A model generated the notes under the pieces. The model saw only the letters and a list, made by a program, of their open reading frames with translations. It was not told the origin of the DNA and did not search any database. This document shows, piece by piece, positions 5,506-63,858 of a stretch of DNA of 64,000 nucleotides. Numbering within the stretch: the stretch's first letter is position 1; each line of letters starts with the position of its first letter. The stretch lies in contig CAZTGD010000006.1 in the NCBI GenBank assembly GCA_964613055.1, positions 5,340 to 69,339 on the forward strand, given 5' to 3'. This stretch comes from an uncultured Caldisericales bacterium (lineage in GTDB: Bacteria > Caldisericota > Caldisericia > JAAYUI01). The translations under genes and the position numbers were made by a program.

Positions 5506-6332
5506 GCGATACCCTCAATCCTGTTCATCAACTGCCTGAAAAGATCAGCGTATTCTGGGATTGACTGAACGACTGTGTCTCCCATAGAATAAGCCTTGGC
5601 AATCCTCATGTCATTTGGAATTCGAGCGAGTATCGGAATCCCCTTTGCATCACAGAACTTTTCAACCCCATCATCACCAATATCACTACGGTTTATCATA
5701 ACGCCAAAACGTAATGCTCTTCTCTCCAGCAAAGCCACTGATAGTTTCAGGTCATGCAGTCCAAAGGGTGTAGGCTCTGTGACCAACACCACATAGTCAA
5801 CTCCGTCAACAGCCTCTATTGCCGGACATGTGTTGCCGGGTGGTGCGTCTATGATGTTCAATCCATTCACTGAAATGTGTTTTTTGACAGACGATATGAG
5901 TTGGGGAGACATCACATTGCCTATCTTGAGCTGACCCTGAACCAGGGTTGTCTCGCCATTTCTAAATATACTTATCTCTCCTAGTTTCTTGGGGTTGGTA
6001 GTGATCGCGTCATGAGGACAGACAATCCAACCACCACAGCTGTGGCACATTTCATCATATACAATAACCTTTTTTGGGAGAGTGATAATTGCATTATACT
6101 TACAGAAATCACTGCACACGCCACATTTTGTGCAAAGTTGGTCGTTTACTGAAGGGGTCTCTATTGACACATCGGTTTGGTCAATCAAATCACCACCGAT
6201 GAAGAATGCATCGTTGGGCTCCTCGACATCACAGTCGAGAAGGGTAACAGGGGTCTTGGCAATTCTGGCAAGATTACATGCAACAGTGGTCTTACCCGTA
6301 CCGCCTTTTCCAGAAGCTATTGCAATCAACAT
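5502..6332 (-). CDS. MinD/ParA-family P-loop ATPase with an inserted [4Fe-4S] ferredoxin domain (paralogue)
   Basis: GKGGTGKTT Walker A. Cys clusters CTKCGVCSDFC / CHSCGGWIVC. Confidence 0.8.
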   Translation of the reverse strand: MLIAIASGKGGTGKTTVACNLARIAKTPVTLLDCDVEEPNDAFFIGGDLIDQTDVSIETPSVNDQLCTKCGVCSDFCKYNAIITLPKKVIVYDEMCHSCGGWIVCPHDAITTNPKKLGEISIFRNGETTLVQGQLKIGNVMSPQLISSVKKHISVNGLNIIDAPPGNTCPAIEAVDGVDYVVLVTEPTPFGLHDLKLSVALLERRALRFGVMINRSDIGDDGVEKFCDAKGIPILARIPNDMRIAKAYSMGDTVVQSIPEYADLFRQLMNRIEGIA

Positions 6333-6366
6333 ATTAGTGATATGAATATCCTTAAGATGCTTATAC

Positions 6367-6684
6367 TTAATTCAGATTATGCTTTTCAATGGCTTTAGAG
6401 ATAGTGGATTCATCGGTCACGATTATCTTAAGGCCTGCTGACTCCAGCACATCCTGTGCCTTTGGCCCGCAGTTCATACACACCATCACATCAATGCCAG
6501 CTTTTGAAACAGTTTCAGCTGATTTAATACCAACTCCATGAGCCGCACTAAGATTGGCGGTATTGTCGATGATCTTGATCTCTTTGGTTTCAGTATCAAA
6601 AATAAGGAAACTCTTTGCTCTGCCAAACACATCCTCGATGGCTGAGTTCAGATTGTCGCCTGCAGTGGGGAATGCTATCTTCAT
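6367..6684 (-). CDS. NifX/NifB-like dinitrogenase FeMo-cofactor-binding-domain protein
   Basis: 105 aa. MKIAFPTAGDNL...KIIVTD resembles the Nitro_FeMo-Co domain family. It commonly sits beside Fe-S MinD-like ATPases. Confidence 0.7.
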   Translation of the reverse strand: MKIAFPTAGDNLNSAIEDVFGRAKSFLIFDTETKEIKIIDNTANLSAAHGVGIKSAETVSKAGIDVMVCMNCGPKAQDVLESAGLKIIVTDESTISKAIEKHNLN

Positions 6685-25728: not shown

Positions 25729-27360
25729 TTACATCATTTCTGGTGCTGACACACCCAATACTGACAGTGCCGATTTTAACACGCACCGAGTTGCTTTAAC
25801 CAACAACAGTCGTTTGTTTCTGATCTCATCGTCTTCATCCAGTACTCTGCACTTATGATAGAAATGATGAAACGCTCCAGCCACCTTCTCTGCAAACTGA
25901 GTGATCCTGTTTGGTGCTCGTGCATTTGAAGCACTGACTATTACATTGGGGAAAGAAATTATCTCTCTGATGAGATTAAGCTCAGCATCCTCTGTAAACA
26001 CAGATACATTGCTTATATCAGCGTCACCAGCTCTCTCGTCGCTGATTATTGCGTTGCATCTGACATATGCATACTGTACATAGTAGGCAGGATTATCCAT
26101 CGATTTGCTCTTCGCCTGGTCAATGTCAAAATTCAAATGCGTATCTGACGTCCTCATCTGATAGAAGTACCTAGAGACATCCACACCAACCTCATCCAGT
26201 AGTTCCTCAAGGGTGATAAACTCGCCGGAACTCTTACTCATCTTCACCTGTTTACCATCCTTGAACAGATGAACTAGTTGATATAAATGGAACTCGAGTT
26301 TGTCTTTGTTATAGGCGAGAGCTTCCAAACCAGCCTTCATAGGTCCAATGTGTCCATGATGATCAGCACCCATCACGTCAATCACATGATCAAATCCTCG
26401 ATTGAATTTGTTTATGTGGTAGGCGATATCAGTAGCTGTATACGTGATATCACCATTGCTTTTTATTATTACAAAATCCTTGTCATCTCCCAAGTCTGTT
26501 GAACGCATCCATGTAGCACCATCCTCTTCATACAGCATACCACGCTCTTTCAATATGTTAATAGCATCCTCAATCTCACCTGTCTCAACCATCTTTTTCT
26601 CAGAAAACCAAACATCGAATTTGATACCAAATCTTGAAAATACATCCCTTTGCCATTTGATAATTCTGTCAACCGCTTCTTTCCGGAAAAATTGGTGTCG
26701 CGACTCATCATCCATTTCGAGGGGTATTGTCCCGTATTCCATCTTTATCTCAACTGCTATATCGAGTAGATACTCACCTGGATAGCCTTCCTCCGGTATA
26801 TTCCATTCTAGGTTGTGTGCCTGTTTAAAACGTTCCTCAAGAGAGTAAGCCAAATTATCTATCTTAGCACCACGGTCATTTACATAGAACTCTCGAGAGA
26901 CATCGTGACCAGTCCATTCAAGCAGACGTGCGATAGTGTCACCGAGAGGTGCACCTCTACCGTTTGCAACTGTCACAGGTCCTGTAGGGTTGGCTGAAAC
27001 AAACTCAACCTGTACCTTTCTATCACCACCAATATCCCACCTGCCAAAATCATCCTTGAGTGCGTGGCGAAGCCACTGAACAAAGACATCTCCCGTTAGG
27101 AAGAAGTTTATGAATCCAGGACCAGCTATCTCTACTTTACTGAACATTGATTTATCAATGGATTCGATGATCTCTTCAGCAATCTTGCGGGGGGGCATCT
27201 TTAACTTACCTGCCAAACCCATGGCAATGTTGCTTGAATAATCCCCATGCTTGGGTGTATCAGGCCTCAGCACTTCAAACGAATGGTCGTCAACACTTTT
27301 TTGTCGCAGGTAATCATCAAGAATACCTGCAATCCTATCTCTTATACTGCAATTTATCAA
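25729..27360 (-). CDS. argS: Arginyl-tRNA synthetase
   Basis: Class I HIGH motif region (ANPTGPVTVANGRGA). KMSKS (VKMSKSSGEF). Typical C-terminal ...APEMM. Confidence 0.9.
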   Translation of the reverse strand: MINCSIRDRIAGILDDYLRQKSVDDHSFEVLRPDTPKHGDYSSNIAMGLAGKLKMPPRKIAEEIIESIDKSMFSKVEIAGPGFINFFLTGDVFVQWLRHALKDDFGRWDIGGDRKVQVEFVSANPTGPVTVANGRGAPLGDTIARLLEWTGHDVSREFYVNDRGAKIDNLAYSLEERFKQAHNLEWNIPEEGYPGEYLLDIAVEIKMEYGTIPLEMDDESRHQFFRKEAVDRIIKWQRDVFSRFGIKFDVWFSEKKMVETGEIEDAINILKERGMLYEEDGATWMRSTDLGDDKDFVIIKSNGDITYTATDIAYHINKFNRGFDHVIDVMGADHHGHIGPMKAGLEALAYNKDKLEFHLYQLVHLFKDGKQVKMSKSSGEFITLEELLDEVGVDVSRYFYQMRTSDTHLNFDIDQAKSKSMDNPAYYVQYAYVRCNAIISDERAGDADISNVSVFTEDAELNLIREIISFPNVIVSASNARAPNRITQFAEKVAGAFHHFYHKCRVLDEDDEIRNKRLLLVKATRCVLKSALSVLGVSAPEMM

Positions 27361-55090: not shown

Positions 55091-55130
55091 AAAAAAACCG
55101 AAACCCCCCTGTGGCCTAGGAGGGGGGTTT
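55091..55130 (-). terminator. Rho-independent terminator for the 55190..56212 gene
   Basis: Minus strand reads AAACCCCCCTCCTAGGCCACAGGGGGGTTT followed by CGGTTTTTTT. Confidence 0.5.
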
Positions 55131-59894: not shown

Positions 59895-62800
59895 ATGTCT
59901 TCAGAGCTGAAGCAAGCATACAGTATCTATATCAAGCAGATTGAGCTTGACCACCGTAAAGGGAATGACACGGAGATAACCCACCGTGACGCCTTTTCCG
60001 CGTATGTCAAAGCTGTGCTAACCGATGGTTACACTGTCTCTCAGGAAACAAAACAAGAGGATGGCAACAAACCGGACTATGAAATAGAGAGCAAATCAAG
60101 AACAGTTGGATTCATCGAAACCAAGAAGATAGACTATCCCCTTGACAGGCTCGAAGGTGACGATCAACTGCAGAGATACTTTGAAGCGGTTGGCAATGTG
60201 ATAACCACAAACTACCTGGAGTTTAGATGGTATTCAAAGATTGAAAACACAGATGATTACGATGGCTCCAAACTGATACCAATCAGATCACTCAAGGTCG
60301 CCCACTGGGATGGTAAACGGATTGTAACCGATATAAAAGACCCACATCTGAAGCTGGCTGATTTCATTAGGGGGTTTACCTATGCAAAGGTGAGAACCGT
60401 CCGCAAGCCCGTTGAGCTTGCGCGGAGGATGTCATCGACAGCAAAGATGATTCGCGATTCAATGACGGAGGAATTGGCAGGAGAAACCAATGAAATTGAT
60501 CCGCTTTCATCTCAACTGGAATCTTTCAGGGAAACGATTATTGCTGACCTGTCTCCACAGTTGTTTGCGGACATGTACGCTGAAACCATAAGCTATGGTC
60601 TCTTTTCGGCAAAGAACGCCGTTGGCTCAAAAGAGATAACCTGGCAGGGAGCATCCCATTCCATTCCCGCAACCAATCCCTTCCTCAAGAGACTCTTCAA
60701 CGAACTCGTTCAGCAGTTGCCCCCTGCTGTTACCAGATACACGAATCTGCTTGTAAACCTGATGAACGCCATTGACCTGGAATCGGTTATGAAGGGGTTT
60801 GGCAAGGGTAGAGCGAAAGACCCCGTATTTCATTTCTACGAGACATTCCTTTCAGAATACAACCCTAGCCAGCGTGAGAGGCGCGGGGTGTACTACACCC
60901 CAAAACCAGTCGTGAGGTTCATTGTCCGCTCAGTCGACCATATCCTCAGAACCACCTTTGGTTTAAACGGAGGATTGGCAAACGCTGAAGAACAAGACGA
61001 TGGCGTCAAGAGACTCACCATCCTCGACCCAGCCACAGGCACTGGCACCTTTCTCCATGAGGTATTAAACCAGATATTTGAAGAGATTGGTGTCGCCCAG
61101 GCCGGTGGATTCGACAGGAATGACAAAGGGGTAAACGAGGATATCATCCCCAGGCTCTATGGTTTTGAGCTGATGATCGCTCCATACACCATAGCCCACC
61201 TGAAGCTGGGTATGTTGCTTGCAGAGAATGGCTACCAGGGCAGTCAGAGGCTGAATGTGTATCTGACCAACGCGCTGGAGGAGGCGCACAGGTTTGATGA
61301 TGACAGCACAAAAGGGCTCTTTGGATTCACAAAGACAATCATGGCGGAGTCAGAAGGCGCATCGAAAGCCAAGAGTGAACTGCCCGTGATGGTGGTGCTT
61401 GGCAATCCGCCATACTCCGGTCATTCCGCAAACGATATCGAGTGGATGGATGAGCTGATGAGAGGCAAGTGCTACACTGGCAACCCCAAAGAAAAGCTGT
61501 CACAAAGACCTCATGAAAAAACGCACAACTACTTTGAGGTGGACGGCAAGGGTCTTGGTGAGAGGAATCCCAAGTGGCTCAACGATGACTATGTCAAGTT
61601 CATCCGCTGGGGTCAGTGGCGCATAGAGCAGACGGGCGCTGGTGTGCTGGCGTTCATAACAAACCACGGCTATCTTGACAACCCAACCTTCCGAGGCATG
61701 AGGCAGTCACTGCTTGAAGCGTTTGACGAGATTTACATCACCGACCTGCACGGCAACGCCAAGAAGAAGGAGGTCACACCAAGTGGTGGCAAGGATGAGA
61801 ACGTGTTTGACATCCAGCAGGGCGTTGCCATAGGAATATTTGTGAAGCACCCCAAACCCCCCTGCCCTGCACAGGATAATAACCCCCTTTTCAAGGGGGT
61901 CGAATACGACAAAGTCGGATTCGGGGGGTTTAACAAACACTCAAAATACCTAAACAAATCCTTCACCAACGAGAGGATAAAGCAATACAACCTCATATCC
62001 AACGGCACACACCTGCCATACGCAGATGATCTAAAAGACAAAGCCAGAGAACTGAGAAAGAGCCAAACACCAGCAGAGAAGAAACTGTGGTATGAATACC
62101 TAAGCAGACTCGACCTTCGCTTCAAGCGTCAGCACCCGATAGACAACTACATAGTAGACTTTTACTGCACGAAACTCGGTTTGGTGATTGAGATTGATGG
62201 TTCATTGCACAACGAAGACCTACAGCATGATAAAGACAAAAAGCGTACTGCGATACTGGAGAAATATGGTCTGACCGTGATTCGTTTTTCCAACGATCAG
62301 GTTTTAAAGGAGTTTAAGGGTGTCTGTCAGGTTGTAGATTCGTATATAAGCAAAGATAAACCCCCCTACCCTGCTGTGCAGGGCATCCCCCCTCGAAGAG
62401 GGGGGTGTAAGTATGCTACGGTGTATCATCATGACCTGTGGGGGGTGCGTGAGATACGGGTCAATTCAAAAAAAGAGAACGATAAAACAGAGCTGGTGGG
62501 TGGCAAGTATCACTGGCTGGATACACACAGTGTGGGTGAAGGTGTCGACTGGAAGGTGCTGAACCCGCAACAACCCTTCTATCTGTTCAGCCCCTTTGAC
62601 AACGAGCTTGCCCATGAGTATGAGTGTGGCGTGAAGATTACCGATCTGTTTCCCACCAACTCGGTTGGGATAGTGACAGCAAGGGATAAGTTCGTTATTG
62701 ATTTCGAAAGAAACAATCTGGTTCAGAGATTAAATGAGTTCTGCTCAAAAGAGATATCCGATGATACAGCAAAAAGGAATTTTCTATCGAATCGAGACAA

Positions 62801-63533
62801 ACTAGATGTTTCTAAAGCCCGAAACGAGGTTAGAAAAGTAAATATTGAAAATTATGTTGATGACATCTTATACCGACCTTTTGACACGAGACCAATCATT
62901 TATTTGCCAGCTTTGATTGAGAGAAGCAGGGATGATGTCATGAAACACATGCTGGCGGGGGATAATGTTGGTTTGATAACCACAAGACAAGTTGCTGTAA
63001 GTATTTTCAATCATTCACTTATCACCAATAGCATTATTGACAATCGTCTAACAAGAAGCAATAAAGGCATCTGTTACCTTTTCCCGCTGTACTTGTATCC
63101 ACACGGCGACTCACTGGATGTTAAGTCAACCTCCTGGCGGGAGGGTGAAAACGGACGCATACCAAACCTGAACAGGAAGCTGATTGAGGGCATCGCTAAA
63201 CGTTTGGGTGTGATTTTTATTTCGGAGGGCAAGGGCAACATCATTCAAACCCCCCTGCCCTGCACAGCAGGGCGTCCCCCCTCGAAGAGGGGGGGCAAAG
63301 GACCCCCTTTTGAAGGGGGTCGAATCCGCTTCTGGCGGATTCGGGGGGTTGACAATCGGTCCAGAGGACATCCTCAGCTACATCTACGTCATCCTCCACA
63401 GCCCAACCTACCGCACCCGTTACGCACCATTCCTGAAGATGGACTTCCCCCGTGTGCCCTTCACCTCCAACCTGGAGCTGTTTGCCAAACTCTCAGCCAT
63501 CGGCTCAAGACTTATCAGCCTGCATCTGCTTGA
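59895..63533 (+). CDS. Type IIG (MmeI-like) RM enzyme as it reads in this sequence; authentic to ~63295, then out of frame
   Basis: PD-(D/E)xK (PDYEIE...GFIETKK, aa 60-78). MTase motif I ILDPATGTGTF. YYTPKPVV. NPPY at 61404-61415. Family-typical ...DENVFDIQQGVAIGIFVK and ...VYHHDLWGVREIR.... After the G7 tract at 63289-63295 the frame gives low-complexity P/Q/L-rich sequence. Confidence 0.7.
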   Translation: MSSELKQAYSIYIKQIELDHRKGNDTEITHRDAFSAYVKAVLTDGYTVSQETKQEDGNKPDYEIESKSRTVGFIETKKIDYPLDRLEGDDQLQRYFEAVGNVITTNYLEFRWYSKIENTDDYDGSKLIPIRSLKVAHWDGKRIVTDIKDPHLKLADFIRGFTYAKVRTVRKPVELARRMSSTAKMIRDSMTEELAGETNEIDPLSSQLESFRETIIADLSPQLFADMYAETISYGLFSAKNAVGSKEITWQGASHSIPATNPFLKRLFNELVQQLPPAVTRYTNLLVNLMNAIDLESVMKGFGKGRAKDPVFHFYETFLSEYNPSQRERRGVYYTPKPVVRFIVRSVDHILRTTFGLNGGLANAEEQDDGVKRLTILDPATGTGTFLHEVLNQIFEEIGVAQAGGFDRNDKGVNEDIIPRLYGFELMIAPYTIAHLKLGMLLAENGYQGSQRLNVYLTNALEEAHRFDDDSTKGLFGFTKTIMAESEGASKAKSELPVMVVLGNPPYSGHSANDIEWMDELMRGKCYTGNPKEKLSQRPHEKTHNYFEVDGKGLGERNPKWLNDDYVKFIRWGQWRIEQTGAGVLAFITNHGYLDNPTFRGMRQSLLEAFDEIYITDLHGNAKKKEVTPSGGKDENVFDIQQGVAIGIFVKHPKPPCPAQDNNPLFKGVEYDKVGFGGFNKHSKYLNKSFTNERIKQYNLISNGTHLPYADDLKDKARELRKSQTPAEKKLWYEYLSRLDLRFKRQHPIDNYIVDFYCTKLGLVIEIDGSLHNEDLQHDKDKKRTAILEKYGLTVIRFSNDQVLKEFKGVCQVVDSYISKDKPPYPAVQGIPPRRGGCKYATVYHHDLWGVREIRVNSKKENDKTELVGGKYHWLDTHSVGEGVDWKVLNPQQPFYLFSPFDNELAHEYECGVKITDLFPTNSVGIVTARDKFVIDFERNNLVQRLNEFCSKEISDDTAKRNFLSNRDKLDVSKARNEVRKVNIENYVDDILYRPFDTRPIIYLPALIERSRDDVMKHMLAGDNVGLITTRQVAVSIFNHSLITNSIIDNRLTRSNKGICYLFPLYLYPHGDSLDVKSTSWREGENGRIPNLNRKLIEGIAKRLGVIFISEGKGNIIQTPLPCTAGRPPSKRGGKGPPFEGGRIRFWRIRGVDNRSRGHPQLHLRHPPQPNLPHPLRTIPEDGLPPCALHLQPGAVCQTLSHRLKTYQPASA
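61854..61930 (+). repeat. GC-rich modular hairpin repeat, copy A, translated in frame
   Basis: AAACCCCCC-TGCCCTGCACAGG-ATAATAA-CCCCCTTTTCAAGGGGGT-CGAATACGACAAAGTCGGATTC-GGGGGGTT. About 65% GC in a ~43% GC gene. Confidence 0.7.
61932..62354 (+). other. Embedded DUF559-like (Vsr/PD-(D/E)xK-fold) endonuclease domain, in frame within the RM gene
   Basis: LRKSQTPAEKKLWYEYLSRLDLRFKRQHPIDNYIVDFYCTKLGLVIEIDGSLH...KDKKRTAILEKYGLTVIRFSNDQVL matches the DUF559 domain consensus. No ATG or stop of its own. Confidence 0.65.
62358..62405 (+). repeat. GC-rich modular hairpin repeat, copy B (5' modules only)
   Basis: AAACCCCCC-TACCCTGCTGTGCAGGGCAT-CCCCCCTCGAAGAGGGGGG. C6/G6 symmetric hairpin. Confidence 0.7.
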
Positions 63534-63858
63534 GGACGACGTGCTGAAATCCGACAGATCGGTCAGCTTCACAGGAGACGGCGACCACGTGGTGGGCAGA
63601 ATCAGACATGAAAACAACCGCGTCTACATCAACAAAGACGAATACTTTGAGGGTGTGCCGGCGGACGTCTACAGATTCATGGTCGGCGGGTACCAGGTCG
63701 CAAACAAATGGCTGAAGGACAGAAAGAAAAGGGAGCTTGTAAGGGAGGAGAGGACTCGATACTGCAGGATAATCACCTCGCTTAAAATGACCTTAAAGGC
63801 GATGGATGATATCGATGAGATTATTGATTCCGCAGGCGGATTCCCTCTTAAAACCTGA
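63187..63858 (+). CDS. C-terminal module of the same RM enzyme, in the +1 frame (ORF track 63310..63858)
   Basis: Open frame from 63187. Contains LSYIYVILHSPTYRTRYAPFLKMDFPRVPF and MVGGYQVANKWLKDRKKRELV, conserved at C-termini of type IIG/ISP-like enzymes. Deleting one G of the G7 tract joins it to the 59895 ORF. Confidence 0.65.
63247..63350 (+). repeat. GC-rich modular hairpin repeat, copy C (full set of four hairpins); contains the C6/G7 asymmetric tract where the frame breaks
   Basis: AAACCCCCC-TGCCCTGCACAGCAGGGCG-TCCCCCCTCGAAGAGGGGGGG-CAAAGGACCCCCTTTTGAAGGGGGT-CGAATCCGCTTCTGGCGGATTC-GGGGGGTT. Confidence 0.7.

Follow-up and report, generated by a model that had tools for sequence, protein, structure and literature searches.

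A one-nucleotide extension of a G run in an inserted palindromic element interrupts a type IIG/IIL restriction-modification gene of a Caldisericales bacterium and probably marks a young null allele

The stretch of DNA analyzed here (the window) comprises 64,000 nucleotides (nt) of contig CAZTGD010000006.1 from an uncultured Caldisericales bacterium (assembly GCA_964613055.1, positions 5,340 to 69,339 of the forward strand); coordinates refer to the window unless another contig is named. Close to its end lies a restriction-modification (RM) gene, 59895-63858, whose reading frame is broken at a run of seven G (G7; other runs are denoted likewise). The run is one arm of a hairpin in a palindromic element, here called element C, which is inserted in frame in the region encoding the specificity domain; in two sister lineages, represented by contigs L004 and L006, the run is G6 and the gene is intact. 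The features of the gene, including two further copies of the hairpin element (A and B), are given below in order of their start positions; ORF stands for open reading frame and aa for amino acids.

59895..63533, plus strand: frame-0 ORF of 1212 aa, with a PD-ExK nuclease motif, an N6A methyltransferase, an in-frame DUF559 insert and the first half of Type_ISP_C, followed by a 79-codon out-of-frame tail.
61854..61930, plus strand: element A, which belongs to the hairpin family of element C and borders the DUF559 insert on its 5' side.
61931..62357, plus strand: DUF559 (Vsr-like nuclease) coding insert, in frame, which separates the methyltransferase from Type_ISP_C (residues 712-814; Pfam DUF559, E = 6.7e-31).
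62358..62406, plus strand: element B, the hairpin element that borders the DUF559 insert on its 3' side and holds a symmetric C6/G6 copy of the hairpin.
62690..63078, plus strand: specificity-domain segment that varies between lineages, each of the three having an allele of its own, with no nucleotide-level match to L004 or L006; dN 0.68-0.83.
63214..63858, plus strand: +1 frame encoding the conserved C-terminal half of Type_ISP_C, the conserved part starting from TIGPEDIL at ~63352 (profile positions 172-340, E = 1.3e-44).
63247..63350 (~104 nt), plus strand: element C, a closing stem AAACCCCCC/GGGGGGTT around four hairpins, in frame in Type_ISP_C; fold -82 kcal/mol, z = -8.
63276..63295, plus strand: hairpin 2 of element C (C6 arm/TCGAAGA/G7 arm), its stem predicted in both RNA and DNA; an exact copy with G6 lies at 62387-62405.
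63289..63295, plus strand: the G7 run, the frameshift lesion, with one G more than the G6 of the sister alleles and identical 12-nt flanks; G7 in five assemblies of the window lineage.

In the encoded protein, an N-terminal PD...E.K nuclease motif is followed by an N6-adenine methyltransferase that contains NPPY and by a Type_ISP_C specificity domain; the Pfam matches are N6_Mtase, MmeI_Mtase, Type_ISP_C and DUF559. Residues P60-D61...E75-T-K77 and N504-PPY are invariant in an alignment of ten sequences (A1). Among solved structures, DrdV (7lo5) matches best, with E = 3.9e-40, and LlaBIII and LlaGI come next. The order of nuclease motif, methyltransferase and C-terminal recognition domain is the single-chain layout of type IIG/IIL enzymes, though in the window the polypeptide is interrupted by the frameshift. 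The C-terminal domain resembles that of the type ISP enzymes LlaGI and LlaBIII, but the window protein is devoid of their helicase-like motor: Pfam identifies no helicase domain (the SF2 motor of type ISP) in it, and the LlaBIII and LlaGI matches are limited to the methyltransferase region. It is therefore assigned to type IIG/IIL of the MmeI/DrdV kind, and not to type ISP.

The single chain of nuclease, methyltransferase and specificity domain is shared with the DrdV/MmeI-type enzymes, while the ordinary homologues of about 1080 aa, of which there are thousands, do not have the two in-frame insertions of the window protein. In the alignment with these homologues, insertion 1, composed of element A, DUF559 and element B, follows ...QQGVAIGIFVK, and insertion 2, element C alone, is located between GKGNIIQ and TIGPEDIL, where ordinary homologues read GKGDLK-KTFGPED. 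In public annotation, the 1212-aa ORF is labelled 'very-short-patch-repair endonuclease' (JGI), because of its DUF559 insert, and the C-terminal remainder figures as a separate hypothetical protein of 105-134 aa. Both labels mislead, and the interval 59895-63858 would be better marked as one frameshifted gene.

Frame 0 runs from ATG 59895 to the stop at 63531-63533, and past the G run its translation turns into a low-complexity tail starting GGKGPPFEGGRIRFWRIRGVDNRSRGHPQLHLRHPPQPNLPH, as noticed in the first-pass annotation of the window, which was made from the sequence alone. Other observations made there were confirmed on re-reading. The G7 run does lie within a C6/G7 hairpin (window 63276-63295, CCCCCC-TCGAAGA-GGGGGGG, that is, the C6 arm, the TCGAAGA centre and the G7 arm), the hairpin of element B (62387-62405) is indeed symmetric C6/G6, and deletion of one G yields a single 1320-aa ORF, 59895-63858, now backed by two intact sister alleles. 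Versions with G5 and G8 encounter a stop after 1138 and 1139 aa, respectively. The +1 frame encodes the family-conserved C-terminal domain, as had been proposed: the Pfam domain Type_ISP_C is split by the break, with profile positions 1-181 in frame 0 and 172-340 in frame +1. The +1 frame had been described as open from 63187; this is corrected to 63214, given the TGA at 63211-63213. In positions 63296-63533, frame 0 remains open for 79 codons beyond the shift, overlapping the conserved +1 frame; a rough estimate of the chance of this in random sequence is ~2%.

The first-pass annotation overlooked that the hairpin is a part of an inserted, translated palindromic element, the source of the homopolymer at this place. 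The G7 run forms the 3' arm of the second hairpin of element C, and according to fold prediction the stem with G7 is 2 base pairs longer, due to a G.T wobble and a G-C pair. Of the two halves of element C, the 5' one is a repeat of element B and the 3' one a repeat of element A. The closing stem AAACCCCCC/GGGGGGTT(T) is present in elements A and C, and element B has the 5' arm only; the folding z-scores of C, A and B are -8, -3.7 and -2.8, respectively. All of them are hairpin repeats that keep the ORF open and are absent from some orthologues, no elements being found in the ~1080-aa homologues, which is the behaviour of in-frame palindromic elements. No target-site duplication was recognised at the elements, and no transposase was identified. 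A G homopolymer thus occurs inside a conserved domain because a palindromic element made of C/G runs was inserted there; the RM gene (59895-63858) contains 10 of the 17 C/G runs of at least 6 nt in the 64-kb window.

The comparison with strain variants, suggested in the first-pass annotation, revealed two close relatives with the same gene neighbourhood as the window, both with G6 and an intact ORF. The first allele (P0001, 1338 aa) is found on contigs L004, L005, L041 and L042, representing four assemblies, and is 96-97% identical to the window upstream. The second one (P0121, 1341 aa) is encoded on L006, the NCBI metagenome-assembled genome (MAG) GCA_054921975.1, with upstream identity of 99.3%; over the first 1956 nt of the gene, the window does not differ from this intact allele. 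At the lesion, the sister lineages read GAGGGGGG-CAAAGGACCCCC, that is, G6; in context, ...TCGAAGAGGGGGG|CAAAGGACCCCC... corresponds to ...TCGAAGAGGGGGGG|CAAAGGACCCCC... in the window, the flanks being identical. Both sister alleles are translated here as PPSKRGAKDP, the peptide that the window would encode with one G fewer. Since both intact lineages read G6, the placement of the lesion in the G run, as judged from these alignments, no longer depends on the symmetry of the hairpin alone.

In the sister alleles, element C is longer by 51 or 42 nt and still in frame. Between fixed anchors, the segment is 172 nt long in the L004 type, 163 nt in L006 and 122 nt in the window; with G6, the window segment would be 121 nt, and the differences between lineages become 51, 42 and 9 nt, all of them multiples of 3. 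Hence the single G is the sole frame-breaking difference among the lineages at element C. Lengths differing by multiples of 3 indicate that the frame has been kept under selection and that the insert is translated. As an alternative cause of the shift, one imprecise 50-nt deletion, suggested by the gap placement of MAFFT, was considered and found less parsimonious, as two more substitutions would have to be assumed; the data are accounted for by one G plus an in-frame indel of 51 nt that lies between the direct repeats CAAAGGACCCCC/CAAAAGACCCCC. Moreover, L006 independently reads G6 followed by CAAAGGACCCCC, against the 50-nt deletion. In hairpin 4 of element C (window 63321-63341), the arms GAATCCGC/GCGGATTC are replaced by GAATCCGTC/GACGGATTC in L006, a compensatory change. 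This change hints that the hairpin structure itself may be maintained.

The variable segment 62690-63078 differs from that of L006, though the first 1956 nt of the gene are equal; this pattern points to a recent recombination that would have swapped the target-recognition part. Three different alleles in three lineages are the usual sign of an RM gene that was once active and exchanged specificities.

The ratio of non-synonymous to synonymous rates (omega, estimated by the Nei-Gojobori method) is 0.11 in the nuclease and methyltransferase part and 0.27-0.37 in the 169 codons past the shift; judging from these ratios, the gene is under purifying selection. On the window-specific branch, the region past the shift has accumulated 6.5 synonymous and 9.5 non-synonymous changes, versus the neutral expectation of about 1:3.5. 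No further stop or indel was found in this region, and this lack of further decay indicates that the lesion is recent. The part lost by the shift contains 47 invariant columns of alignment A1, after residue 1152, including motifs YR.RY..FLK.DFPR.P and GGYQV..KWLKDR. With such a loss, the truncated protein is very probably inactive, as far as conservation is a guide.

The extra G could be explained in several ways, and one of those proposed in the first-pass annotation is a homopolymer error of sequencing or assembly, the true run being G6 and the gene intact. Homopolymers in GC-rich hairpins are classic trouble spots, and a perfect ORF does come back with one G less. The evidence for G7, which consists of assembly consensus sequences, nevertheless speaks against an error. 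MEGAHIT contigs of ERR2407577 and ERR2407578, as well as a Logan contig of ERR1878617, encode precisely this 1212-aa product; the site is also spanned by another Logan contig, assembled from ERR2407577, which reads G7. Together with the window, this makes five assemblies with G7; over 7.1 kb, their identity is 99.99-100%. The reads behind these contigs were produced by Illumina HiSeq/MiSeq sequencing of hypersaline mats of La Brava and Tebenquiche, Salar de Atacama; because ERR1878617 is possibly a second deposit of either PRJEB25599 library, we count at least two, and not three, independent libraries, assembled by three different pipelines (MEGAHIT k127, Logan and that of the window's source). 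In the same contigs that give G7 at element C, the C6-TCGAAGA-G6 hairpin of element B is read with G6, the sister lineages give G6 in five other datasets, and a control tract of the window, G7 at 27189-27195, is in frame within an intact 543-aa ORF. Illumina chemistry is known for a low indel error at 7-mers. The repeated stretch is shorter than 50 nt, below the k-mer length used, so that repeat-induced misassembly is unlikely as well. The concordant G7, the G6 of element B and the control ORF make a sequencing or assembly error very unlikely. If the extra G is genuine, the frameshift might still be bypassed so that a functional enzyme is kept, by a +1 ribosomal slip, by slippage of the RNA polymerase, or by separate translation of the C-terminal part from TTG 63310 and assembly of the fragments. 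Slippage of tRNA-Gly by +1 on A-GGG-GGG-GCA, from GGG 63291-63293 to 63292-63294, would allow perfect re-pairing and yield the G6 protein (...SKRGAKDP...); TTG 63310 is preceded by an AAGGA motif at a distance of 7 nt; the break falls within a Pro/Gly-rich inserted linker, where a split might be tolerated; and the region past the shift is undecayed. On the other hand, the shift site is not conserved, as would be expected of a programmed site, since both sister lineages have the in-frame G6, and known +1 stimulators, such as a rare codon or a stop codon in the A site, are missing. A -1 shift is what the hairpin 6 nt downstream would promote, and such a shift meets a stop within a few codons (the G8-like frame); TTG 63310 is buried in a stable predicted 9-bp stem. 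Incidental leakiness at the G run is possible, and a programmed mechanism of frameshifting or slippage is not supported; a functional bypass as a whole appears quite improbable.

The other explanation given in the first-pass annotation is a slipped-strand switch between G6 (on) and G7 (off) at a useful rate, providing reversible RM control as in cj0031. Cj0031/Cj0032 of Campylobacter jejuni NCTC11168 is on with G9 and off with G10, with mixed tract lengths among colonies of one strain (PMC4889913). The likeness is considerable: both are single chains of nuclease, methyltransferase and specificity domain, an extra G in an intragenic poly-G splits the gene into two annotated ORFs (G10 in cj0031/cj0032, PMC4889913), restriction and methylation are expected to be lost jointly, making the off state non-toxic, and the target-recognition region varies among homologues. 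Besides, both lengths occur among close relatives (G6 in the sisters, G7 in the window), the region past the shift is undecayed, and G7 reaches the Campylobacter cut-off. Against this, no length variation is observed within a lineage at the consensus level, with G7 in 5/5 assemblies of the window lineage and G6 in 4/4 of the L004 type and in the single L006, five of five for the sisters. A collection of 15 billion proteins contains no exact G5, G6 or G8 product of the window lineage, and a metagenome scan allowing G5-G9 retrieved no variant of this lineage, only two more G6 contigs of the L004-type lineage. The on state, being just G6, is below both published cut-offs (G/C of at least 7 in Campylobacter, G of at least 9 in Neisseria), and the off state G7 reaches the former and not the latter; proven switching of a type IIG gene involves G9/G10 (PMC4889913). 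In the Neisseria survey that set the cut-off at G of at least 9, siaD switches at G7, yet tracts of this length are considered too frequent to be scored as phase-variable (PMC5953494). Reversibility is not borne out, the on alleles being found only in sister lineages that differ also in the specificity-domain allele and in the length of the element. Moreover, the tract is a by-product of the palindromic element, as its length mirrors the opposite C6 arm and is lengthened in no lineage, and the other G7 of the window (27189-27195) is stable in an intact ORF. The window tract thus differs from that of Cj0031/Cj0032 in being G6/G7, uniform per lineage and an arm of an inserted palindromic element; the proteins differ too, as Cj0031 belongs to the Eco57I/TaqI_C subfamily and the window protein has N6_Mtase and Type_ISP_C. 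Taken together, a phase-variation switch finds no support and is rather unlikely.

We consider it probable that G7 is a genuine and recent insertion of one G by slippage that has produced a young pseudogene, or stable null allele, and not a programmed switch. The palindromic element would earlier have been inserted in frame, and translated, in the C-terminal specificity domain of a DrdV/MmeI-like type IIG/IIL enzyme; replication slippage would then have added one G in the G arm of the hairpin. The frame shifted by this G would give a 1212-aa product without the last 169 conserved residues of the specificity domain, and cleavage, methylation and recognition would presumably all be lost together. 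As one polypeptide carries all three activities, their joint loss would not be toxic to the cell. The mutation is present in every assembly of this near-clonal lineage, from two Atacama salt-lake mats. The simple pseudogene, which the first-pass annotation had listed as a case that would refute its own reading, is closest to the evidence, with a uniform G7 and a recent lesion, while the uniformity is that of assembly consensus sequences and not of reads.

Several points weigh against the explanation by a stable null allele. In consensus sequences, a minority of G6 reads would be invisible, and the possible re-deposit of ERR1878617 reduces the number of independent libraries to at least two from three. 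G7 satisfies the cut-off of at least 7 applied to phase-variable tracts of Campylobacter (PMC6321876), and meningococcal siaD is switched by a G7 tract (PMC5953494), so that by analogy slow reversible switching at G7 is possible in principle. Finally, we infer the loss of function from conservation.

Taken by itself, the frameshift is an ordinary homopolymer knock-out of an RM gene and matters little, as one more RM gene inactivated by homopolymer slippage; what is unusual is the inserted palindromic element that supplies the homopolymer. Genes colonised by palindromic elements with C/G homopolymer arms acquire fragile sites that are prone to frameshifts. The case also demonstrates that public assemblies alone were sufficient to tell a real mutation from a sequencing error and to date it as recent.

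Most homologues of the window protein lack the DUF559 insert, whose best relatives are free-standing DUF559 proteins of 120-170 aa. Removal of the inserts as inteins, introns or by other excision was considered and rejected, as they are small, keep an open frame in seven loci and have indels in multiples of 3, and as the omega of DUF559 is below 1. No intein-like junction residues were seen on reading the insert flanks in the alignment. The small size, the kept frame, omega below 1 and the lack of such junctions point to translation through the insert.

Three distant homologues with 46-48% identity (P0003, P0008 and P0048) also carry DUF559 in frame, in each case at one of the two insertion sites of the window protein, and each of these inserts is flanked by its own lineage-specific palindromes. 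One distant DUF559-bearing homologue contains a module, AACCCCCCTACCCCCCTTCACAAGGGGGGCAAA, that resembles the extra module of the L004 allele. A search of genomes for the 19-nt hairpin produced 34 matches, and the two-match locus belongs to a complete Caldisericia MAG (OY771555.1, locus L013); single matches in unrelated taxa were assumed to be chance GC palindromes. The MetK protein encoded in the window shares 80% identity with that of OY771555.1 and 79% with that of another Caldisericia MAG, which assigns the organism to Caldisericota. In L013, positions 5700-6450, a DUF559 insert is placed in frame directly ahead of the NPPY motif of another type IIG gene (Eco57I/TaqI_C, 1239 aa), and the hairpin arrays that flank the insert contain C6-TCGAAGA-G6 twice in exact form. 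By eye, the DUF559 part of L013 is close to that of the window. The L013 case suggests a mobile in-frame cassette that may colonise RM genes.

In-frame insertions in protein-coding genes are known for Rickettsia palindromic elements (RPE) and MITE-like repeats. As in these families, the elements described here are short multi-copy palindromes in ORFs that keep the frame, are translated and are absent from orthologues. Unlike them, the window family is rich in GC homopolymers (C5-7/G5-7 arms), has a modular number of hairpins within a closing stem, is tied to the gene of a DUF559 nuclease, and was met here in RM genes only. In the literature search, no description of DUF559 in-frame insertions or of hairpin-DUF559 cassettes was found. 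Tentatively, and with somewhat less than even confidence, we suggest a family of undescribed, translated modular hairpin cassettes, often paired with a DUF559 gene, that are inserted in frame at recurrent sites of type IIG RM genes. It is an unlikely extension of this proposal that the cassette family is real and that, in addition, its C6/G6 arms serve as portable slippage tracts, a crude switch for the host RM gene (on with G6, off with G7), caught here in the off state.

In the Rfam scan of the locus, no family passed its gathering threshold. RF01762 whalefall-1 is matched over its full length at window 63300-63353 (plus strand), in the 3' half of element C, with 28.3 bits (E = 7.8e-5), and in L013 at 6251-6300 on the minus strand, beside the DUF559 insert, with 23.3 bits; both values are lower than the gathering score, 37 bits. 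The DUF559-flanking repeats of three other homologues had no match to whalefall-1, only spurious microRNA-like matches to long palindromes. Whalefall-1 is a candidate non-coding RNA whose only known source is a whale-fall metagenome (Weinberg et al. 2010, PMC2864571). The likeness consists of two adjacent hairpins and a G-rich tail, while the window match is inside a translated ORF and not in a free-standing non-coding RNA gene.

Beyond the RM gene, a single minimal hairpin of the 64-kb window, at ~55101-55130, shares the stem of the elements. This intergenic hairpin, AAACCCCCC-TGTGGCCTAGGA-GGGGGGTTT, has the closing stem of elements A and C, and it may be either a minimal copy of the element or an unrelated terminator.

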